The notes: generated by a model not told the origin, from the letters alone. A stretch of 13,666 bases of DNA from Promethearchaeota archaeon (GCA_048938445.1 JBHLME010000121.1:1-13666), one strand, 5' to 3'. Positions 6,500 to 13,093 are shown, counted from the first letter of the stretch. Program-made: numbers and translations.

Positions 6500-6892
6500 C
6501 TATATATCTAATTCTTCTTTAAATAATTTAATATAATTCTCAAATTCATCCATCATCAAGTCGTAATAAGTAAATTTACCTTTTTTCCAACCTCTGATTA
6601 ATCCTATTCTTTCTAAGGACCGTAAATGATGGGAAATAGAGGGTTGAGATTTGTCTAATATAGTTTCAAGCTCGCACACGCATTGCTCTCCCTTTTCTTT
6701 TAAAGTCTTGATGATCATTAAACGATCTTTATTTCCTAAAGAATTAAAAAATTCAATAAGTTGAGAAAATTTCTGACTCATCTTCAATTTCATTCCATAG
6801 TCCTTTAATTCTTTGAAATAAGTCTCTACACATCCATTTTCATTACATGAACACAAAATTTCTTTTATTTCCTTTTCACGCGTGAGATCCAT
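6500..6892 (-). CDS. arsR: ArsR/SmtB family metalloregulator
   Basis: FNSLGNKDRLMII...CVCELETILDKSQPSISHHLRSLERIGLI...GKFTYY has the ArsR wHTH and the alpha3 CVCEL As(III)-binding motif. There is an extra N-terminal CSCxxxxC. The gene is divergent from the acr3-containing cluster. Confidence 0.9.
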   Translation of the reverse strand: MDLTREKEIKEILCSCNENGCVETYFKELKDYGMKLKMSQKFSQLIEFFNSLGNKDRLMIIKTLKEKGEQCVCELETILDKSQPSISHHLRSLERIGLIRGWKKGKFTYYDLMMDEFENYIKLFKEELDI

Positions 6893-6990: not shown

Positions 6991-7040
6991 AAAAATTTTT
7001 AAATGAAGCAATTTATTACTATATCAATGCTTCTTGACAC
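6991..7040 (+). promoter_or_regulatory. Candidate archaeal promoter plus ArsR operator
   Basis: A-rich BRE-like run and TTTTAAA TATA-like box at about 6991-7003. The imperfect dyad ATATCAA-N6-TTGACAC (7021-7040) sits near the expected start site, and GAAGCA-N17-TGCTTC spans 7005-7033. The AT-rich background makes this tentative. Confidence 0.3.
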
Positions 7041-7057
7041 ATTTTTTTTTAAAAAAT

Positions 7058-7819
7058 ATGATAAAAAAAAATCTAAATCAAAACCATAACATCAAAGTAG
7101 GAGTTATTTCTGATGGTAAATATGGTGAAAGAGCTTTTGAAAATATAAAATCCTTTTTTAATACTAAATGGATTATAGTTCCTGATATCCCTACAAATAT
7201 AATGTTAGATAATGATTTAGATCTTGAAATTCCTGAATGTGATATCTATATTTCTTATGTTAGACATCCAGATATAATAATACAAATAGTAGAACTCCAA
7301 AAACCCGTGATACTTGGTATCCTTCCTGGAATAGGATTATATAAGCAAATTAAAGATATTAATTCAAAGGTCATTCACGTGCCAACAATGTGTTCCCTTG
7401 AAGATAATACTGGAATACCTGAAATAGATGAATTTGCTAAATTCTTTGGGAAACCTATTTTTATACCTACAATTGATGAGAATAATGTTTTTACGAAGAT
7501 TAACCTGATTAGATCTTCATTATGTGGTTCTTCGAAAGCTGGGGCTAATTTCTTATTAAATAAAGAATTTAATGAAAAAAACTTGCAAGAATTCGCCATA
7601 AGGGTTTGTCATGAATGTCGTGCACCCCGATTTGGTAATACGTGTGATAAGGAATCTGCAGGGATTAATCATATTATAGCTTTATTAAGTTGTATTTCTC
7701 CCGAAATCCTTATTCATAGTAATGAAAACTTGAAATCTTTCATGAAAGATATTCAAAAAGAATATGAAAAAAGATTAGATATATCAAGAAGTCTAATTAA
7801 TGAGGTAAATTTAACATGA
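7058..7819 (+). CDS. DUF166-like Cys-containing protein
   Basis: GKYGER, YVRHPD, PTMCSLE...PEIDEFAKFFGKP, RSSLCGSS and CHECRA motifs resemble the DUF166 family. ATG 7058 is preferred over the track's TTG 7034. The TGA stop overlaps the acr3 ATG (ATGA 7816-7819). Confidence 0.7.
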   Translation: MIKKNLNQNHNIKVGVISDGKYGERAFENIKSFFNTKWIIVPDIPTNIMLDNDLDLEIPECDIYISYVRHPDIIIQIVELQKPVILGILPGIGLYKQIKDINSKVIHVPTMCSLEDNTGIPEIDEFAKFFGKPIFIPTIDENNVFTKINLIRSSLCGSSKAGANFLLNKEFNEKNLQEFAIRVCHECRAPRFGNTCDKESAGINHIIALLSCISPEILIHSNENLKSFMKDIQKEYEKRLDISRSLINEVNLT

Positions 7820-8865
7820 ATGATACAATAAAAATAGAAACGAACATACAGGACGCCAAAAAACTTGGTTATTTTGAAAAATTACTTCCATTATGGGTTG
7901 CTATTTGTATTATTATAGGTATCCTTTTATCTTTAATTCCAGGTTTAAGCAATATCCTTAAAGCTTTGGTTATACCATATACAGGGATATCTATACCAAT
8001 TGGAATATGTTTATTTTTAATGATGTACCCAGCAATGTTAAACCTTCAACTAACTGAATTGAAAAAGCTAGGAAAAAATCCCATACCAATTATCTTGACT
8101 CTAATATCTAATTGGATCGTAGCCCCATTGGTAGGTTTATTAGTTGCAAGAATTTTTTTAACGGGAAACGATGACCTAATACTTGCAATTATATTATTAT
8201 CCAGTTCACCTTGTACCGCAATGGTATTAGTTTGGGGTTGGATGGCACGTGGTAATCAAGAACAAAATGTAATTAATACGAGTATAAATACAATTACAAT
8301 TATCTTTCTCTACGTTGGAATAGTAACTTTGTTAACAGGAATTCAAAATATCCCAATAGATCCACTATCTTTATTAATTTCGTTGGTTTTCTTTATTGGT
8401 CTTCCACTATTAGCCGGAATTGTTAGTAAAAAAATATTAATTTCATCTAAAGGTGAAATTTGGTTTGAAAAGAAATATAGACCCTTTGTAGGAAAAATTT
8501 CTATTGTTGCTTTATTAACGACATTAATAATTCTTTTTTCAATGAACGGTGATGTTCTTCGAAATTATCCAGAGTTATTGATTTTAGTATCAATTCCTCT
8601 GTTAGTAGGATTTGTAATTGTTGTAGGTTATAATATCTTAATGACTAAAATATTCAAACTATACTATCGAGAAGCAATTATAACTGTTATTATTGGCTCA
8701 TCAAGTCATTTTGAAATTGCGATAGCAACTGCAGTTGGAATAGGTAGTGCTATTGCAGCTCTTGGTACCACAATGGGATTGTTTTGGGAAGTTCCTGTTA
8801 TGTTATCTATAGTATATCTAGGAAGATTTTTATTAAAGAAAGGTTTTTGGAAAGAAAATCAATAA
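7816..8865 (+). CDS. acr3: Acr3 family arsenite efflux transporter
   Basis: FEKLLPLWV, IPIGICLFLMMYPAM, NWIVAP, SPCTAMVLVW (conserved Cys), GSSSHFEIAIATAV and EVPVML motifs, with about 10 TM segments. Confidence 0.95.
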   Translation: MNDTIKIETNIQDAKKLGYFEKLLPLWVAICIIIGILLSLIPGLSNILKALVIPYTGISIPIGICLFLMMYPAMLNLQLTELKKLGKNPIPIILTLISNWIVAPLVGLLVARIFLTGNDDLILAIILLSSSPCTAMVLVWGWMARGNQEQNVINTSINTITIIFLYVGIVTLLTGIQNIPIDPLSLLISLVFFIGLPLLAGIVSKKILISSKGEIWFEKKYRPFVGKISIVALLTTLIILFSMNGDVLRNYPELLILVSIPLLVGFVIVVGYNILMTKIFKLYYREAIITVIIGSSSHFEIAIATAVGIGSAIAALGTTMGLFWEVPVMLSIVYLGRFLLKKGFWKENQ

Positions 8866-8888: not shown

Positions 8889-10553
8889 ATGGCTGTTGTC
8901 TATATGAGAAAATTGGAAGAACAACCGGCAACTTACGATTCAAATTTCACTACACTTACTAAGGGTGTTAACCTCAAGGTTCATGAATGGGTACTTGATC
9001 GAGTTGGTAAATCCGAGTCGATTTTAGAATTAGGTTGTGGGACTGGTCTGTTAGCCACTAAATTAGCACTAAAAGGAAATGATGTTCTTGCTCTAGATAA
9101 AAATTTCTTTATGATTAATCAAGCAATGCAAAATTATCCTTCTAATACAGAAATAAACCTAACTTATCAAATAGGTACGATCAACAATACCCCTATTGAA
9201 CCAGAGTCAAAAAATGTCATCATCAGTACATTTATGTTATCCGAGCTTCGCCCTCTTGAACAACAAATTTTGCTAAGAAAAGCTTGGAAAATATTAAAAC
9301 CAAATGGAAGATTAATTTTAGCCGCAGAATTCATGCCATCTGGATTTTGGAAAATCCCTTTTAGAATAAAAAGATGGTGGTATAAGAAAAAACTTAAACG
9401 TCTCAGACTAAAACAAACCTTTCTATTAAATTGGTTTCATAAATATATAGAACCAATAGGTTTTCAAGTGATAGAACAGAAAAAATGGAATCATGGAGCA
9501 ATCCAAGCCATGGTTTTAAAAAAAAATGATAAAGATCAACCTGGTTATTATTTTGCTCATCAAAAAGAATTTAAGGGAATAAAATCCCAATTACGAATCT
9601 ATAGATGCTTGTTTACGGGTCAAGTTGATCGAGTGCCAATAGAACCTGGAGTATATAAATCAGGTAATCCAACAAGAAATTCTCCGATAATTGTTACCGC
9701 GAACTATGAATATACCTATATTAAAGTAATGCGCGATTTAAAAGGAATTGATGCGTGGGTTTTATGTATTGACTCAAATGGTATAAATGTATGGTGTGCT
9801 GCCCGAGGAAATGATTTCGGAAATAATCAACTTCTTGAAGTGGTAGAGGCAACGAATATTATCAATATGACTGATACAAGAATCCTATTACTACCTCAAC
9901 TATCTGCTGGAGGTGTTGCTGTACCTCAATTGCCAATAAAATCAGACACCTTCCCCTTTAGCATAAAATATGGACCGGTATGGTCGAAACATTTGCCACA
10001 ATTCCTAAGAGAAAAACCTGCTAAAAAATCAGATAAAATGAAACTGGCAAAATTTAACATATCTCATAGAGCAAGGGGAGGGATAACTCATACTACTTTT
10101 TTATTCAGAAAAATTTTTATTTATCCTATTATAGGAATGTTCCTTTTATTTACAATATTAGGATTAATTTTTAATCAAAGATGGTTTTATAAATTCTTTT
10201 TTATAGGTGAATTCTCCTTATGGATCATAATTACAAATTTTATTATTATTTTTTTATTTCCACTATCAAAGTTTACACGAATTTTCATCTATAAAGGAAT
10301 TTTCTACGGAGGAATTAATCTATTTATATTATTGGGATTAAATTGGTTAATACATTATTCATTCCTAAATATATTATGGTTTTCTTGGTTTTATTTTTGG
10401 ATAGCTTTCTTTTCAACGATGTCTTTAAGTGGATACACGATGTCAACAAGTCCAAATGAAATTCAAACTGAATATCCTACATTTAGTAGGATAAATAAAA
10501 TCTTATTAATTTTAAGTATAATATTTTTAGTTATTGGAGTCATATTCTATTAA
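8889..10553 (+). CDS. hgcA: HgcA-like corrinoid membrane protein fused to an N-terminal class I SAM-dependent methyltransferase
   Basis: Residues ~1-215 carry ILELGCGTG motif I, ALDKN and ISTFMLSEL...LKPNGRLILAA. The corrinoid domain has IEPGVYKSGNP...SPIIVTANY...WVLCIDSNGINVWCAARG (cap helix, Cys codon 9795-9797), LLLPQLSAGGV and YGPV. The C-terminus has 4-5 TM helices. An hgcB-like gene follows. Confidence 0.85.
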   Translation: MAVVYMRKLEEQPATYDSNFTTLTKGVNLKVHEWVLDRVGKSESILELGCGTGLLATKLALKGNDVLALDKNFFMINQAMQNYPSNTEINLTYQIGTINNTPIEPESKNVIISTFMLSELRPLEQQILLRKAWKILKPNGRLILAAEFMPSGFWKIPFRIKRWWYKKKLKRLRLKQTFLLNWFHKYIEPIGFQVIEQKKWNHGAIQAMVLKKNDKDQPGYYFAHQKEFKGIKSQLRIYRCLFTGQVDRVPIEPGVYKSGNPTRNSPIIVTANYEYTYIKVMRDLKGIDAWVLCIDSNGINVWCAARGNDFGNNQLLEVVEATNIINMTDTRILLLPQLSAGGVAVPQLPIKSDTFPFSIKYGPVWSKHLPQFLREKPAKKSDKMKLAKFNISHRARGGITHTTFLFRKIFIYPIIGMFLLFTILGLIFNQRWFYKFFFIGEFSLWIIITNFIIIFLFPLSKFTRIFIYKGIFYGGINLFILLGLNWLIHYSFLNILWFSWFYFWIAFFSTMSLSGYTMSTSPNEIQTEYPTFSRINKILLILSIIFLVIGVIFY

Positions 10554-10596
10554 AAAAAGAAAAAAATAAAAATTACATATATATTATTGAATTGAA

Positions 10597-10911
10597 ATGA
10601 CTGAATTAGAAAAAAAACCTATTTGTTGCGCCCCTTCAGCAGGAAAAACAATTAATATACGAATTTTAATAGATTCAACGAAATGTACAGGTTGCGGATT
10701 ATGTGGGGAATTATGTCCATTTGGTCTTCCCATTCCTACTAATAATGGAAAATTTGAGATCAAAAAACCAGAATTATGTACTGAATGCAGCGCATGTCAA
10801 AGGAATTGCCCTGCTCAAGCAATTATAATGCAAGAGCGTGTAGGTTGTGGCTGTCTCTGGGATGCTAGAAAGCGATTAAATGATAAGAAAAATTCGTGTA
10901 ATTGTTGTTAG
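10597..10911 (+). CDS. hgcB: HgcB-like 2[4Fe-4S] ferredoxin
   Basis: CTGCGLCGELCP and CTECSACQRNCP, then VGCGC (cf. HgcB GVGCA) and a C-terminal SCNCC Cys tail. It lies directly downstream of hgcA and has an extra N-terminal CC. Confidence 0.82.
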   Translation: MTELEKKPICCAPSAGKTINIRILIDSTKCTGCGLCGELCPFGLPIPTNNGKFEIKKPELCTECSACQRNCPAQAIIMQERVGCGCLWDARKRLNDKKNSCNCC

Positions 10912-10937
10912 AATTTAATTTATAGGTGATCAAGAAA

Positions 10938-11354
10938 ATGGATGAAGAAAAAAAGGTAAAAGTAGAATCATCAGCAACATCCTGTTGTGAATCCTCGCAT
11001 TCAGATTGTTGTGATGCTTCAAATAATTATAATTCAATAACACATAAAAATCAAGTTTCAACATCAACTATAAAAGAGGGGGAAATTTCACCTCAAAAAT
11101 TAAAAGTTGATATTTATGTACCATTAGAAACATGTTCATGTACATGGGTGCAATTTATGAATTTGATGTTTACTGCATTAACCCCATATATTAAATATAT
11201 AAGACATGAGACAAGATCATTGAACTCTGAGGAAGCGCGCAAGTTGAATTTAAAAGGTAACTGTGTAATTGTTGAGGGAAAGAAAAAATATACAACTTCT
11301 CATGCTCTTAAACAAGATTTACCCGCCCTTCTTAAAGAAAAGGGTTTAATTTAA
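10938..11354 (+). CDS. Cys-rich thioredoxin-fold-like putative metal(loid) chaperone
   Basis: ATG 10938 follows SD AGGTGAT (10924-10930); the track's GTG 10926 lies within this SD. The low-complexity N-terminus has SCCESSHSDCCD, then VDIYVPLETCSCTW (CxC after beta1) and NCVIVEGKK, reminiscent of ArsD/Trx-like domains. Fold and function are inferred. Confidence 0.55.
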   Translation: MDEEKKVKVESSATSCCESSHSDCCDASNNYNSITHKNQVSTSTIKEGEISPQKLKVDIYVPLETCSCTWVQFMNLMFTALTPYIKYIRHETRSLNSEEARKLNLKGNCVIVEGKKKYTTSHALKQDLPALLKEKGLI

Positions 11355-11392: not shown

Positions 11393-11857
11393 ATTAAAAA
11401 AATCACTTTTCAATTGAGAGTACCGGTTAATGGTATCGCGAAAAACAAGGAATTCACTGTTCAAGTTAAAGATGATGCTATCTTTATTGAAGCCTTAGCG
11501 ATGGTAGATAAATATATTTTTGAACATCCGGATGAATCACATTTCGCATCACATCCTCCAGATAGCTTTATTCGTAGTTATTTACAATTATTTTGGGACC
11601 CTATTGAGGATAAAATTCATTCCGATATTGATGTATTTGCTGCGAGCGTGAGAGGCTTCATGCCAATTAAGAAGAGGATGGATTATAATCTATATGACGA
11701 TTCTGAAATATCACTAACTTCGTCTGCTTGAGGGTGATGAGCGAAATTGGCAAGCAGAGTTGACTATGGAAGGTTTAAAACGATAATTCGCAAGAAGTAT
11801 GGAAAAGAAAATGAATACTTCGCTCATTATTTTAATAAACATGATAGAGATGCATAG
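11393..11857 (+). CDS. Putative multi-selenocysteine ubiquitin/MoaD-like protein, paralog 1 (154 aa, 3 UGA, motif A-U-G-U-U, probable ATT start)
   Basis: The track ORF 11414-11731 continues in frame through TGA 11729, 11735 and 11738 into AKLASRVDYGRFKTIIRKKYGKENEYFAHYFNKHDRDA, ending TAG 11855 then TAA. This tail is conserved in paralog 2. SD GGAGGT (11379-11384) precedes ATT AAA AAA ATC ACT TTT. A SECIS-like hairpin starts 5 nt after the stop. Confidence 0.75.
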
Positions 11858-11862
11858 TAAGA

Positions 11863-11914
11863 ATGATTTTTTTCAAAAAATTGTAGTGAAAAAATGACAA
11901 GAGGAGAGTATCCT
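11863..11914 (+). promoter_or_regulatory. SECIS-like 3'-UTR RNA element, copy 1
   Basis: ATGA-T-TTTTTTCA-AAAAATTGTAG-TGAAAAAA-TGAC-AAG-AGGA-GAGTA-TCCT: AUGA/GA tandem G.A core, 8-bp stem, A-run apical loop and a small 3' hairpin. Confidence 0.75.
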
Positions 11915-11958
11915 AATACTATCTATATATTATAAAAAAAATGAAGGAGGTCGTATAA

Positions 11959-12429
11959 ATTAAAAAAATAACTTTTACAATTAGCATACCAATAAAAGAT
12001 CTACAAGAGGGCAAGACGTTTACTGTTGATGTCAAGGATGATGCGAACTTTATTGAAGCATTGGCTATGGTTGATAAATATATTTTTGAGCATCCAGAAC
12101 ATTCCATTTTTCCCATACATGAAGGATATATCCATAATTATTTGCAATTAATAGTGAATCCTGAAGAAGATTACATATATGATGATGTTGGTCTCGCGCC
12201 TTATGCTCCAAACGAAGAAGGTCTATTAAGAAAGTTTAATCCAATTCAGGATGACATTTTTTTTAGTTTATTTCCAGACAGTGTTATAGATATACAGCAA
12301 GATTTTGGATGTTGATGACAAAAAGTGAAAAATAGGTTAGAAATAGGTAGGTTTAAATCAGTAATTCGAGAGAAATATGGGAAAGATAATGAATATTTTT
12401 CTCATTACTTTAAAAATTATAAAAAATAA
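11959..12429 (+). CDS. Putative multi-selenocysteine ubiquitin/MoaD-like protein, paralog 2 (156 aa, 2 UGA, motif G-C-U-U, probable ATT start)
   Basis: The frame opens right after TAA 11956 at ATT 11959 (IKKITFTISIPIKDLQEGKTFTVDVKDDANFIEALAMVDKYIFEHPE...), homologous to paralog 1, with SD GGAGGT at 11946-11951. After DFGC come TGA 12313 and TGA 12316, then QKVKNRLEIGRFKSVIREKYGKDNEYFSHYFKNYKK and TAA 12427. A SECIS-like hairpin starts 2 nt later. Confidence 0.75.
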
Positions 12430-12431
12430 GA

Positions 12432-12483
12432 ATGATATCTTTCAAAAAATAGTAGTGAAAGATTGACAATAGGAATGCCTCCT
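12432..12483 (+). promoter_or_regulatory. SECIS-like 3'-UTR RNA element, copy 2
   Basis: ATGA-T-ATCTTTCA-AAAAATAGTAG-TGAAAGAT-TGAC-AAT-AGGA-ATGCC-TCCT, with two compensatory pair changes relative to copy 1. Confidence 0.8.
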
Positions 12484-12553
12484 TATTATTCATAATAAAA
12501 ATTTTTAATGATTTGACTATTTTAAATAAAAATAACAAACAGTAATAAAAAAA

Positions 12554-12778
12554 ATGACGTTAAAATATTATAGTAATATCAACTGCCCCGATTGTGCACA
12601 TATAAATACTGTAAAAATTCCTGAAACTATGTGACTTAATTGGATTGAATGTGAAAACTGTAAAAAAAAGATTATAGGAAAAGAAAACAATCATGATTGA
12701 GCTTGAGTATTTTGTAGCTATGGGGATGTACCTTGACTACATGTTCAAGTACAAGAGTTGAAAAAGAATGAAAATTAA
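12554..12778 (+). CDS. GDCCVxC-family selenoprotein (74 aa, 4 UGA read as Sec)
   Basis: Missed by the ORF track. It reads MTLKYYSNINCPDCAHINTVKIPETMULNWIECENCKKKIIGKENNHDUAUVFCSYGDVPULHVQVQELKKNEN with TGA at 12632, 12698, 12704 and 12734. It matches the family pattern CPxC...MPxxAC...CxxC...GDCCVFCSYGxVPC, with every UGA at a family Cys position. It ends in TAA followed by a SECIS-like element. Confidence 0.85.
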
Positions 12779-12785
12779 AATATGG

Positions 12786-12837
12786 ATGATATCTTTCAAA
12801 AAATAATAGTGAAAGATTGACAATAGGATTGCCTCCT
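12786..12837 (+). promoter_or_regulatory. SECIS-like 3'-UTR RNA element, copy 3
   Basis: ATGA-T-ATCTTTCA-AAAAATAATAG-TGAAAGAT-TGAC-AAT-AGGA-TTGCC-TCCT, 50/52 identical to copy 2 with both differences in loops. Confidence 0.8.
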
Positions 12838-13093
12838 ATAAAACTAGAATTATAATTAATAAATTTAAATAGGTTTTAATCTAACTAATCTTAATGAAAT
12901 CGATTTTCTTTAAAATAAGCAAGATCCTTATTAACTCTTGGATTTAATAGCTTGTTTTATCCAAATCATATGAAAGGTATTGTAATCTAGATAATATTTA
13001 ATTTCTTTATTGTCAATAATTATAAATAAAAATAAATTCAAGAATTAATAATATAAATATAGAAAATAAAAGAATATTTTATGTTAAAAAAAA

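Follow-up and report, generated by a model that had tools for sequence, protein, structure and literature searches.

The window analysed here is a stretch of 13,666 nucleotides from a Promethearchaeota archaeon (GCA_048938445.1 JBHLME010000121.1:1-13666). It contains an open reading frame (ORF) that very probably encodes a true protein with four selenocysteines (Sec, U) and that, judged from its sequence, is a divergent Sec-rich variant of the GDCCVxC/GOS_B family and not a typical member (Table 1). The in-frame stops of this ORF are exactly four, all TGA, and the ORF ends with TAA. Five Cys codons are left, all TGT or TGC, and correspond to C11, C14, C33 and C36, which form two CxxC knuckles, and to C54 of the VFC motif; translation of positions 12554-12778 confirms in this respect the original prediction made from the DNA. 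The four Sec represent 5.4% of the 74 residues. The number of TGA codons by itself is within chance: the genome is AT-rich (29.6% GC), frames that are open but for several TGAs are no rarity there, and reading with code 4 gives at least four TGAs in 7 of the 39 ORFs of at least 50 amino acids in the window, the other six of which overlap real genes read in another frame or from the other strand. This number becomes significant because it is accompanied by a family match, by conservation in relatives and by a selenocysteine insertion sequence (SECIS). In an assembly produced independently by a different study (run X5), a 302-nt contig over 12514-12812 covers the whole gene, with no listed difference in any TGA codon. 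No RNA run figured among the public runs listed as holding the sequence. Four variants are listed inside the ORF, of which three are synonymous (12562, 12628 and 12652, codons read by eye) and one, at 12743, replaces Val by Ile.

With the four Sec written as Cys, the product matches the NCBIfam model NF041374 with 57.1 bits (cut-off 40) over model positions 1-57 of 58, as the proposed GDCCVxC identity had implied. The score remains above the cut-off when Gly (44.1 bits), an undefined residue X (43.0 bits) or Trp (42.3 bits) is placed at the UGA positions, and the preference of the hidden Markov model (HMM) for Cys over these residues amounts to 13-15 bits. A six-frame read-through search reached 42.2 bits with the same model. 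NF041374 is named 'GDCCVxC domain-containing (seleno)protein' and is listed with a single Sec, under the name 'hypothetical protein GOS_B', in Table 1 of a 2026 review (PMC13188914); Zhang & Gladyshev 2008 (PMC2398784) report 11 forms of GOS_B with Sec and 125 with Cys. Sec-containing members of the family, mentioned in the original prediction, are thus on record in the model name and in these two sources. A word-based search of the protein collection retrieved two relatives only (68% and 62% identical), both called with TGA as Trp. A profile of 11 orthologs recovered 1072 proteins at E ≤0.001 among 1.84 billion; the top five after P0006 (P0007-P0011) represent the same Asgard form, called with Trp at all four sites, and the rest are all-Cys proteins. 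No HMA or ArsD domain was matched in the four-Sec protein (Pfam and NCBIfam, E up to 0.01-1).

The 11 orthologs were aligned with 137 Cys-form members of the family using MAFFT. The zinc-ribbon columns C11, C14, C33 and C36 are occupied by Cys in 137, 137, 137 and 134 of the 137 relatives, respectively, and the column of C54 in 136; the columns of the UGA codons are described in Table 1. The column following U49, which holds the first Cys of the CC pair, is Cys in 129 relatives but Pro, Ala, Asn, Ser, Thr or Arg in the Asgard form. The spacing from the Gly to the Val of the motif is identical in the two forms, and a second alignment is consistent with this result. The sequence GDCCVFC is changed into G-U-x-U-VFC, where Sec takes the place of the Asp and the pair loses its first Cys, and the literal motif G-D-C-C-V-x-C is found neither in the window (D-U-A-U-V-F-C) nor in the orthologs (G-U-x-U-[VIM]-[FYL]-C). 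According to the alignments, one ligand is shifted by one residue and nothing is inserted. It had been predicted that the UGAs stand exactly at conserved Cys sites; this is correct for U27, U51 and U61 and incorrect for U49, which falls in the Asp column. An expansion of CC to UxU by insertion, also predicted, was rejected on the basis of the unchanged spacing in both alignments.

The UGA codons are conserved in the relatives. The family HMM detected 12 loci with TGAs among 61 related genomes, and all 12 have, on translation, four TGAs in the same columns; five further matches, located inside ORFs of 145-1474 amino acids with E-values of 3e-4 to 6e-3, were set aside as chance. A match is present in 47 of the 301 genomes of the phylum. 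The 15 genomes from the window's own order all carry four TGAs (five in G047), whereas no internal stop is seen in the 32 genomes with a match that belong to three other families of the phylum; the 15 homologs translated from these three families are all-Cys DCC(V/I)(F/Y)C forms. The form with at least four Sec is represented by 22 loci in 21 genomes (12 among the 61 relatives and 9 further); G044, G050 and G055, which carry it, are genomes assembled as one contig. Scattered TAA or TAG stops, regarded at the outset as a sign of decay, were looked for and none occurs within the aligned body of these loci. The alignment of the 11 orthologs contains no indel, and C33, C36, G42, N45, C54 and P60 are invariant in all of them. 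Column 51 is occupied by Cys in a relative from a metagenome (P0002), which represents a natural Sec/Cys exchange, and in G047 (locus L095) a fifth in-frame TGA replaces the zinc-ribbon residue Cys36 (CGGU). The locus of G054 shows no clear start. Gene callers drop this gene or translate its UGAs as Trp, so that surveys of protein databases miss it.

A repeat of about 60 nt is present behind the four-Sec gene and behind both upstream genes, here named A and B, and corresponds to a SECIS element. A promoter reading of this repeat, which contains TTGACA, was dropped when it proved to be a SECIS. Behind the four-Sec gene, the element is eukaryote-like (Asgard type I) and starts 8 nt after the TAA, with AAAAAA at 12798-803 opening the apical loop, which agrees with the prediction that one SECIS in the 3' untranslated region (UTR) serves the gene. 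In the eight elements that were aligned, the AUGA, AAAAAA and GA columns are invariant (8/8) and all eight base pairs of the helix have changed on both sides. The helix contains 93.8% of paired cells, against 59.0% in shuffled alignments (0 of 500 reached the observed value) and 44-53% when the helix is slid. The same architecture is found in the 3' UTR of selD of this genome and in its vhuD elements. A covariance model named R1, built from the eight elements, gave at least eight matches in the genome, in a search that scored 150 of 8731 first-look candidates: three lie in the window and one at selD, three follow VhuD/FrhD-type genes that each contain two UGAs, and one is unclear. R1 is found directly behind the gene in 14/14 loci of family f1. 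In family f2, five of the seven loci show by eye the succession AUGA-stem-AAA-ministem-stem-GA, with a type II-like look. The core of the element in G047 appears to be AAGA instead of AUGA. A scan of the window with Rfam at E up to 1 matched no family, SECIS families included.

The position of the element relative to the UGAs suggests how Sec codon and stop could be distinguished. In four orthologs (L009 of G021, L086 of G267, L088 of G289 and L094 of G158) the apparent terminator is itself a UGA located 5-12 nt before the SECIS AUGA, whereas the last Sec UGA stands 38-50 nt before it. These values suggest that a minimum UGA-SECIS decoding distance separates a Sec codon (at least 38 nt) from a stop (5-12 nt).

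A second small hairpin is located just 3' of the SECIS. It follows the 17 SECIS elements examined without exception, 3-7 nt past the GA; its stem covaries and its loop contains GC. Its other copies are found approximately at 12470-12485 and 11910-11925 in the window and at C226, C204, C4 and C20 of the genome holding the window (G000). In the vhuD elements the lower helix encloses both hairpins, resulting in a three-way junction. This second hairpin may be a lower-stem substitute, an arm of a three-way junction or a terminator, and we did not find it described in the passages on SECIS elements of the literature consulted. In sediment metagenome contigs, the summed depth over 12782-12845 is up to 200-fold, against 3-10 over the gene; this peak is consistent with a short element that recurs behind many genes in many organisms.

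Upstream of the ORF, a candidate archaeal TATA box is present and no Shine-Dalgarno motif precedes the ATG (sequence read by eye). Because of these two features, the four-Sec gene is suggested to have its own promoter and a leaderless mRNA.

The window behaves as translation table 11, with ORFs of 1145, 554 and 415 amino acids that contain no TGA, and some neighbouring genes end with TGA. UGA is an ordinary stop in the neighbouring genes and the recoding is therefore local; a global reassignment of UGA to Trp or Gly (codes 4 and 25) is ruled out by these long TGA-free neighbours, by the TGA terminators and by the preference of the HMM for Cys. The neighbours in the window include a proteasome-activating nucleotidase, SMC and MCP, and the genome contains a homolog of the ESCRT-II protein Vps25 above the Pfam cut-off (43.7 bits) that is found in 0 of 14 control genomes. 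The host is a Loki-type Asgard archaeon. The search for the Sec machinery covered SepSecS, SelD and tRNA-Sec. SepSecS is present with 471.7 bits (cut-off 224.85; C157:147-1448), as well as SelD with 181.3 bits, which itself contains one UGA (KIHG-U-SCK). A tRNA-Sec candidate adjoins SepSecS (G000 C108 end / C157:3-72) and displays a UCA anticodon, a 9-bp acceptor and a 4-bp T stem. About 35 nt are inserted in the D-arm region of the candidate; the published intron of Loki tRNA-Sec is placed in the T arm in the corresponding passage of PMC5330540. The four UGAs would be decoded as Sec by this archaeal/eukaryote-type machinery (tRNA-Sec, SepSecS, SelD, EFSec), and the single kink-turn SECIS would direct all four decoding events.

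The structure was predicted with AlphaFold2 from 119 sequences, with a predicted local distance difference test score (pLDDT) of 95.2 and a predicted template modelling score (pTM) of 0.82. The model shows two beta hairpins bearing the two knuckles, followed by two helices. Foldseek against the PDB gave a best E-value of 0.33, the neighbours being weak Zn-ribbon or Zn-finger modules, and a wide search with VIA-align gave as best match an NZF zinc finger (Z 3.7, root-mean-square deviation 2.3 over 43 residues). The search of the PDB by sequence produced nothing past the eS27 zinc ribbon (E 0.07), and no solved relative. These searches found no informative fold relative, which does not imply that the fold is novel. 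The Zn-ribbon scaffold that had been proposed fits this confident model and its weak neighbours.

The function was approached from the genes that accompany the family. In bacteria, the Cys form is found in operons of the types merR-merT-merP-GDCCVxC and arsR-arsC-ACR3-GDCCVxC-...-arsM. In 25 evenly spaced rows taken from 353 plasmid records, GDCCVxC abuts merP in 15, merT in one and ACR3 in one, in line with the predicted proximity to mercury-resistance genes. In the Asgard relatives G014 and G023, MerA (512-530 bits, cut-off 454) is encoded immediately downstream on the same strand, and the downstream protein of G267 and G258 is 62-63% identical to the MerA of these two genomes. ACR3 and ArsM, or ArsM alone, are located upstream in G021 and G017, together with a B-like selenoprotein. 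G311 shares the arrangement of G000 (Cys-rich protein, A, B and the GDCC gene). No MerA or ArsM scores above cut-off in the genome of the window.

We lean slightly towards a role in the binding or hand-off of Hg(II) and/or As(III), because a thiophilic metal(loid) is the common denominator of the mer and ars contexts. Taken as a whole, the explanation by a genuine four-Sec gene with one SECIS and a selenolate-rich Hg/As binding or hand-off protein appears rather probable to us. The 74-residue product, probably cytosolic, would use the N-terminal four-Cys zinc ribbon (C11, C14, C33, C36) as a scaffold, and a second cluster would be made of five chalcogen ligands, U27, U49, U51, C54 and U61, four of them selenolates. 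Gene context and chemistry point to this cluster as a Sec-rich soft-metal site, which would bind Hg(II) and/or As(III) and either sequester the metal(loid) or pass it by ligand exchange to the enzymes or carriers encoded alongside. The recipients could be MerA or ArsM in the relatives and, in the present genome, the HgcAB-like corrinoid methyltransferase pair and ACR3. Selenolates, which are deprotonated at neutral pH, would bind tighter and faster than thiolates in sulfidic sediment. Sec would serve here as a metal ligand and not as a redox catalyst, and the company of MerA, ArsM, ACR3 and HgcAB-like proteins points to a selenium chemistry directed against Hg/As, or transforming them, in anoxic sediments.

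Several observations weigh against this explanation. The genomic association is partial: MerA adjoins the gene in only 4 of the 21 Sec-form genomes, ars-type or A/B genes stand beside it in about five (G000, G001, G017, G021 and G311), and in G055 the only such genes in the vicinity encode ArsR and an HgcB-like ferredoxin. For the remaining 11 genomes, no metal gene was recognised in the flanks that were inspected, which measure about 1.5 kb or less on each side in seven of them (G264, G289, G209, G233, G158, G047 and G054). Many of the plasmid rows represent one mobile mer element and are not independent. As regards decoding, the tRNA-Sec candidate scores 39.5 against an Rfam threshold of 47 and was overlooked by ARAGORN, which found no tRNA-Sec. 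In family f2, R1 is at most weak (17.2 bits, E 0.22, in 1/7 loci), and two f2 loci, G044 (L008) and G047 (L095), show no clear canonical SECIS by eye. The clustering of residues 27, 49, 51, 54 and 61 is deduced from the sequence pattern alone, the very strong Hg-Se bonds argue for a sink rather than for hand-off, and we found in the literature no experiment on any member of the family.

A selenium-based Hg/As relay in the Loki-type Asgard archaea would extend the metal-binding role and is put forward tentatively, as rather doubtful. The UGUU, CUU and U...UxU...U proteins of the locus would pass the metal from selenolate to selenolate, up to an HgcA-type corrinoid methyltransferase, ArsM, MerA or ACR3. 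If true, this would be the first biological metal chaperone on a Se4S site, and the locus would offer a natural test case for the processive decoding of multiple UGAs by one SECIS.

Among the other functions, a redox activity of a real four-Sec protein seems unlikely. Selenol and (di)selenide or selenylsulfide states would alternate at the UxU and U/C pairs, and the protein would act in arsenate reduction, in the regeneration of ArsM or MerA cysteines or in peroxide detoxification. Most known selenoproteins are indeed oxidoreductases with Sec at the redox site (PMC4989117), although the five conserved chalcogen positions exceed the needs of a redox pair. The vicinal UU motifs of the adjacent genes A and B could form diselenides, and thioredoxin and ArsC genes occur in a bacterial ars operon holding a Cys form; on the other hand, the mer and ars contexts share a thiophilic substrate and not a redox step, and the predicted model has no thioredoxin-like fold, only a Zn-ribbon-like module. 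Moreover, MerA uses NAD(P)H directly, which counts against such a role.

It is improbable that the second cluster holds a structural or redox centre of its own (Zn, Fe, or Fe-S with selenolates) and that the protein is a small electron carrier having the neighbouring ferredoxin, HgcA-like or MerA enzymes as partners. The spacing C...x21...CC-xx-C...x6...C matches no ferredoxin motif of Pfam or NCBIfam and an extra electron carrier is not expected in the classical bacterial mer/ars operons where the family is found, even if HgcB-like ferredoxins are encoded within 1.5 kb in G000, G021 and G055. The nine conserved Cys of the family would suffice for two tetrahedral sites, and Sec is described within the 4Fe-4S motifs of Loki HdrA (PMC4989117); the shift from DCC to UxU would nevertheless be tolerated more easily if the site is flexible and receives a substrate than if it holds a fixed cluster.

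We consider very improbable a selenium-gated expression in which UGA27 would be decoded inefficiently and the usual product would be a 26-residue peptide, the gene acting as a selenium sensor or store. Such a fragment would hold one zinc knuckle only, and it is clear from the all-Cys relatives that function belongs to the full-length protein. Four successive UGAs would multiply the inefficiency and four Sec in 74 residues represent a high selenium load, but the clear protein-level conservation that continues after each UGA in 21 genomes counts against gating. Finally, the absence of a selenoprotein, either through a decaying pseudogene or through UGA read as Trp or Gly, is effectively refuted: Trp is recorded at these sites in P0002 (three of four), P0003 and P0007-P0011 and the genome is rich in AT, but the breaks are only TGAs, in the same four columns of the 22 loci, three of these columns are conserved Cys in the family with an HMM that favours Cys, the long neighbours are free of TGA or end with it, and a SECIS and the Sec machinery are present.

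The GDCCVxC family and this type of SECIS are already known. The four-Sec protein of the preferred reading is homologous to GDCCVxC/GOS_B over the whole domain of about 70 residues, and the CPxC...CxxC zinc ribbon, C27, VFCSYG and the PC positions are common to both, as are the mer/ars neighbours and the switching between Cys and Sec. The known family has one Sec in the table of the 2026 review (PMC13188914) and the Asgard form four, or five in one relative. The SECIS elements predicted in 2008 for the families then new were bacterial and in-frame (PMC2398784), whereas the Asgard form, with GDCC changed to G-U-x-U, uses one eukaryote-like SECIS located in the 3' UTR, in an archaeon. This SECIS shares with the Asgard eSECIS-like type I elements, as described in PMC4989117 and PMC11227280, the AUGA...GA core, the loop opened by adenines and the 3'-UTR site. 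It differs in that it lies behind a family that is not one of the seven given for Asgard selenoproteins in Huang 2024 (PMC11227280), at 50 nt past the last Sec codon, and in that the second hairpin always follows.

The use of one SECIS for several UGAs is shared with HdrA-VhuD of Loki. According to PMC4989117, Loki HdrA has up to four Sec and VhuD two, SelP has two SECIS and SelL contains a UxxU motif. The mRNAs of HdrA, VhuD, SelP and SelL have in common with the present one several UGAs, a 3' SECIS and closely spaced Sec pairs (UxxU in SelL, UxU here). The four-Sec protein is far smaller, it has one SECIS against two in SelP, and the presumed role of its Sec is metal ligation and not catalysis or selenium transport. 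As regards the chaperones of mer and ars operons, NmerA and MerP have the HMA fold with the motif GMTCxxC, and ArsD uses Cys12-Cys13-Cys18. By analogy, the four-Sec protein most likely works like these NmerA/MerP or ArsD chaperones, with which it shares a small soluble size, a location in mer/ars operons and clustered or vicinal chalcogen ligands. The likeness is functional only: there is no relation in sequence or fold, and the four-Sec protein would have a zinc-ribbon scaffold and mostly selenolate ligands.

According to the 2026 review (PMC13188914), the number of Sec in prokaryotic selenoproteins does not exceed 2-3, a number reached in only a few families. The archaeal form with 4-5 Sec, the altered motif and the two adjoining multi-Sec genes were not found in the parts of the literature covered by the search, and Tables S3-S5 of Huang 2024 could list further sequences. 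The four-Sec form would add a family to the archaeal selenoproteome and, with 4-5 Sec in about 74 residues, would be the most Sec-dense prokaryotic protein that we found on record. It also suggests that, in an archaeon, a single eukaryote-like SECIS is able to support recoding at four UGAs that stand close together, which bears on the origin of the SelP-style processive decoding.

Table 1. Features of the window around the putative four-Sec gene (AUGA refers to the SECIS core; relatives are the 137 Cys-form members of the family).
Feature	Position	Strand	Remarks
Putative four-Sec GDCCVxC/GOS_B-family coding sequence	12554..12778	+	ATG to TAA, 74 codons plus TAA; predicted product MTLKYYSNINCPDCAHINTVKIPETM-U-LNWIECENCKKKIIGKENNHD-U-A-U-VFCSYGDVP-U-LHVQVQELKKNEN
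UGA codon 27 (predicted Sec)	12632..12634	+	Column is Cys in 131/137 relatives; 152 nt before AUGA
UGA codon 49 (predicted Sec)	12698..12700	+	Column is Asp in 107/137 relatives (D of GDCC); 86 nt before AUGA
UGA codon 51 (predicted Sec)	12704..12706	+	Column is Cys in 136/137 relatives (second C of CC); 80 nt before AUGA
UGA codon 61 (predicted Sec)	12734..12736	+	Column is Cys in 136/137 relatives (VP-C site); 50 nt before AUGA
Eukaryote-like SECIS (Asgard type I)	12786..12820	+	AUGA 12786-12789; helix 12790-12797 with 12811-12818; apical loop 12798-12810 (AAAAAAUAAUAGU); GA 12819-12820
Second small hairpin	12823..12839	+	UAGGA-UUGCC-UCCUA
Possible archaeal TATA box	12521..12528	+	TTTAAATA; 25 nt before ATG; sequence read by eye
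ArsR/SmtB regulator	6500-6892	-	
DUF166 protein	7034-7819		
ACR3-type arsenite carrier	7816-8865		230 bits, below the 283 cut-off
CpaM-like methyltransferase fused to HgcA-like corrinoid/membrane protein	8889-10553		Cap-helix motif GINVWCAARG
HgcB-like ferredoxin	10597-10911		C-terminal CNCC
Cys-rich protein	10926-11354		142 amino acids, two CC pairs
Neighbour gene A	11393-11857	+	About 154 amino acids, SSA-U-G-U-U-AK; probable ATT start; own SECIS 11857-11903
Neighbour gene B	11959-12429	+	About 156 amino acids, DFG-C-U-U-QK; probable ATT start; own SECIS 12426-12472

The genes located upstream in the window are listed in Table 1. The scores of the HgcA-like fusion, the HgcB-like ferredoxin and the Cys-rich protein are all below the equivalog cut-offs, and this block (8889-11354) stands where the relatives have ArsM. 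The DUF166 gene matches the NCBIfam model 'DUF166 family (seleno)protein DfsP' weakly, with 34 bits, and no in-frame TGA was seen in this gene. Genes A and B are paralogous, with their probable starts 7-8 nt past GGAGGT, and have no match in Pfam or NCBIfam. Their relatives are present in 46 of the 61 related genomes, nearly all with two or three in-frame TGAs, and A/B looks like a widespread Asgard selenoprotein family outside the seven published ones. Together, A, B and the four-Sec gene contain nine predicted Sec codons in 1.4 kb, each gene having its own SECIS.

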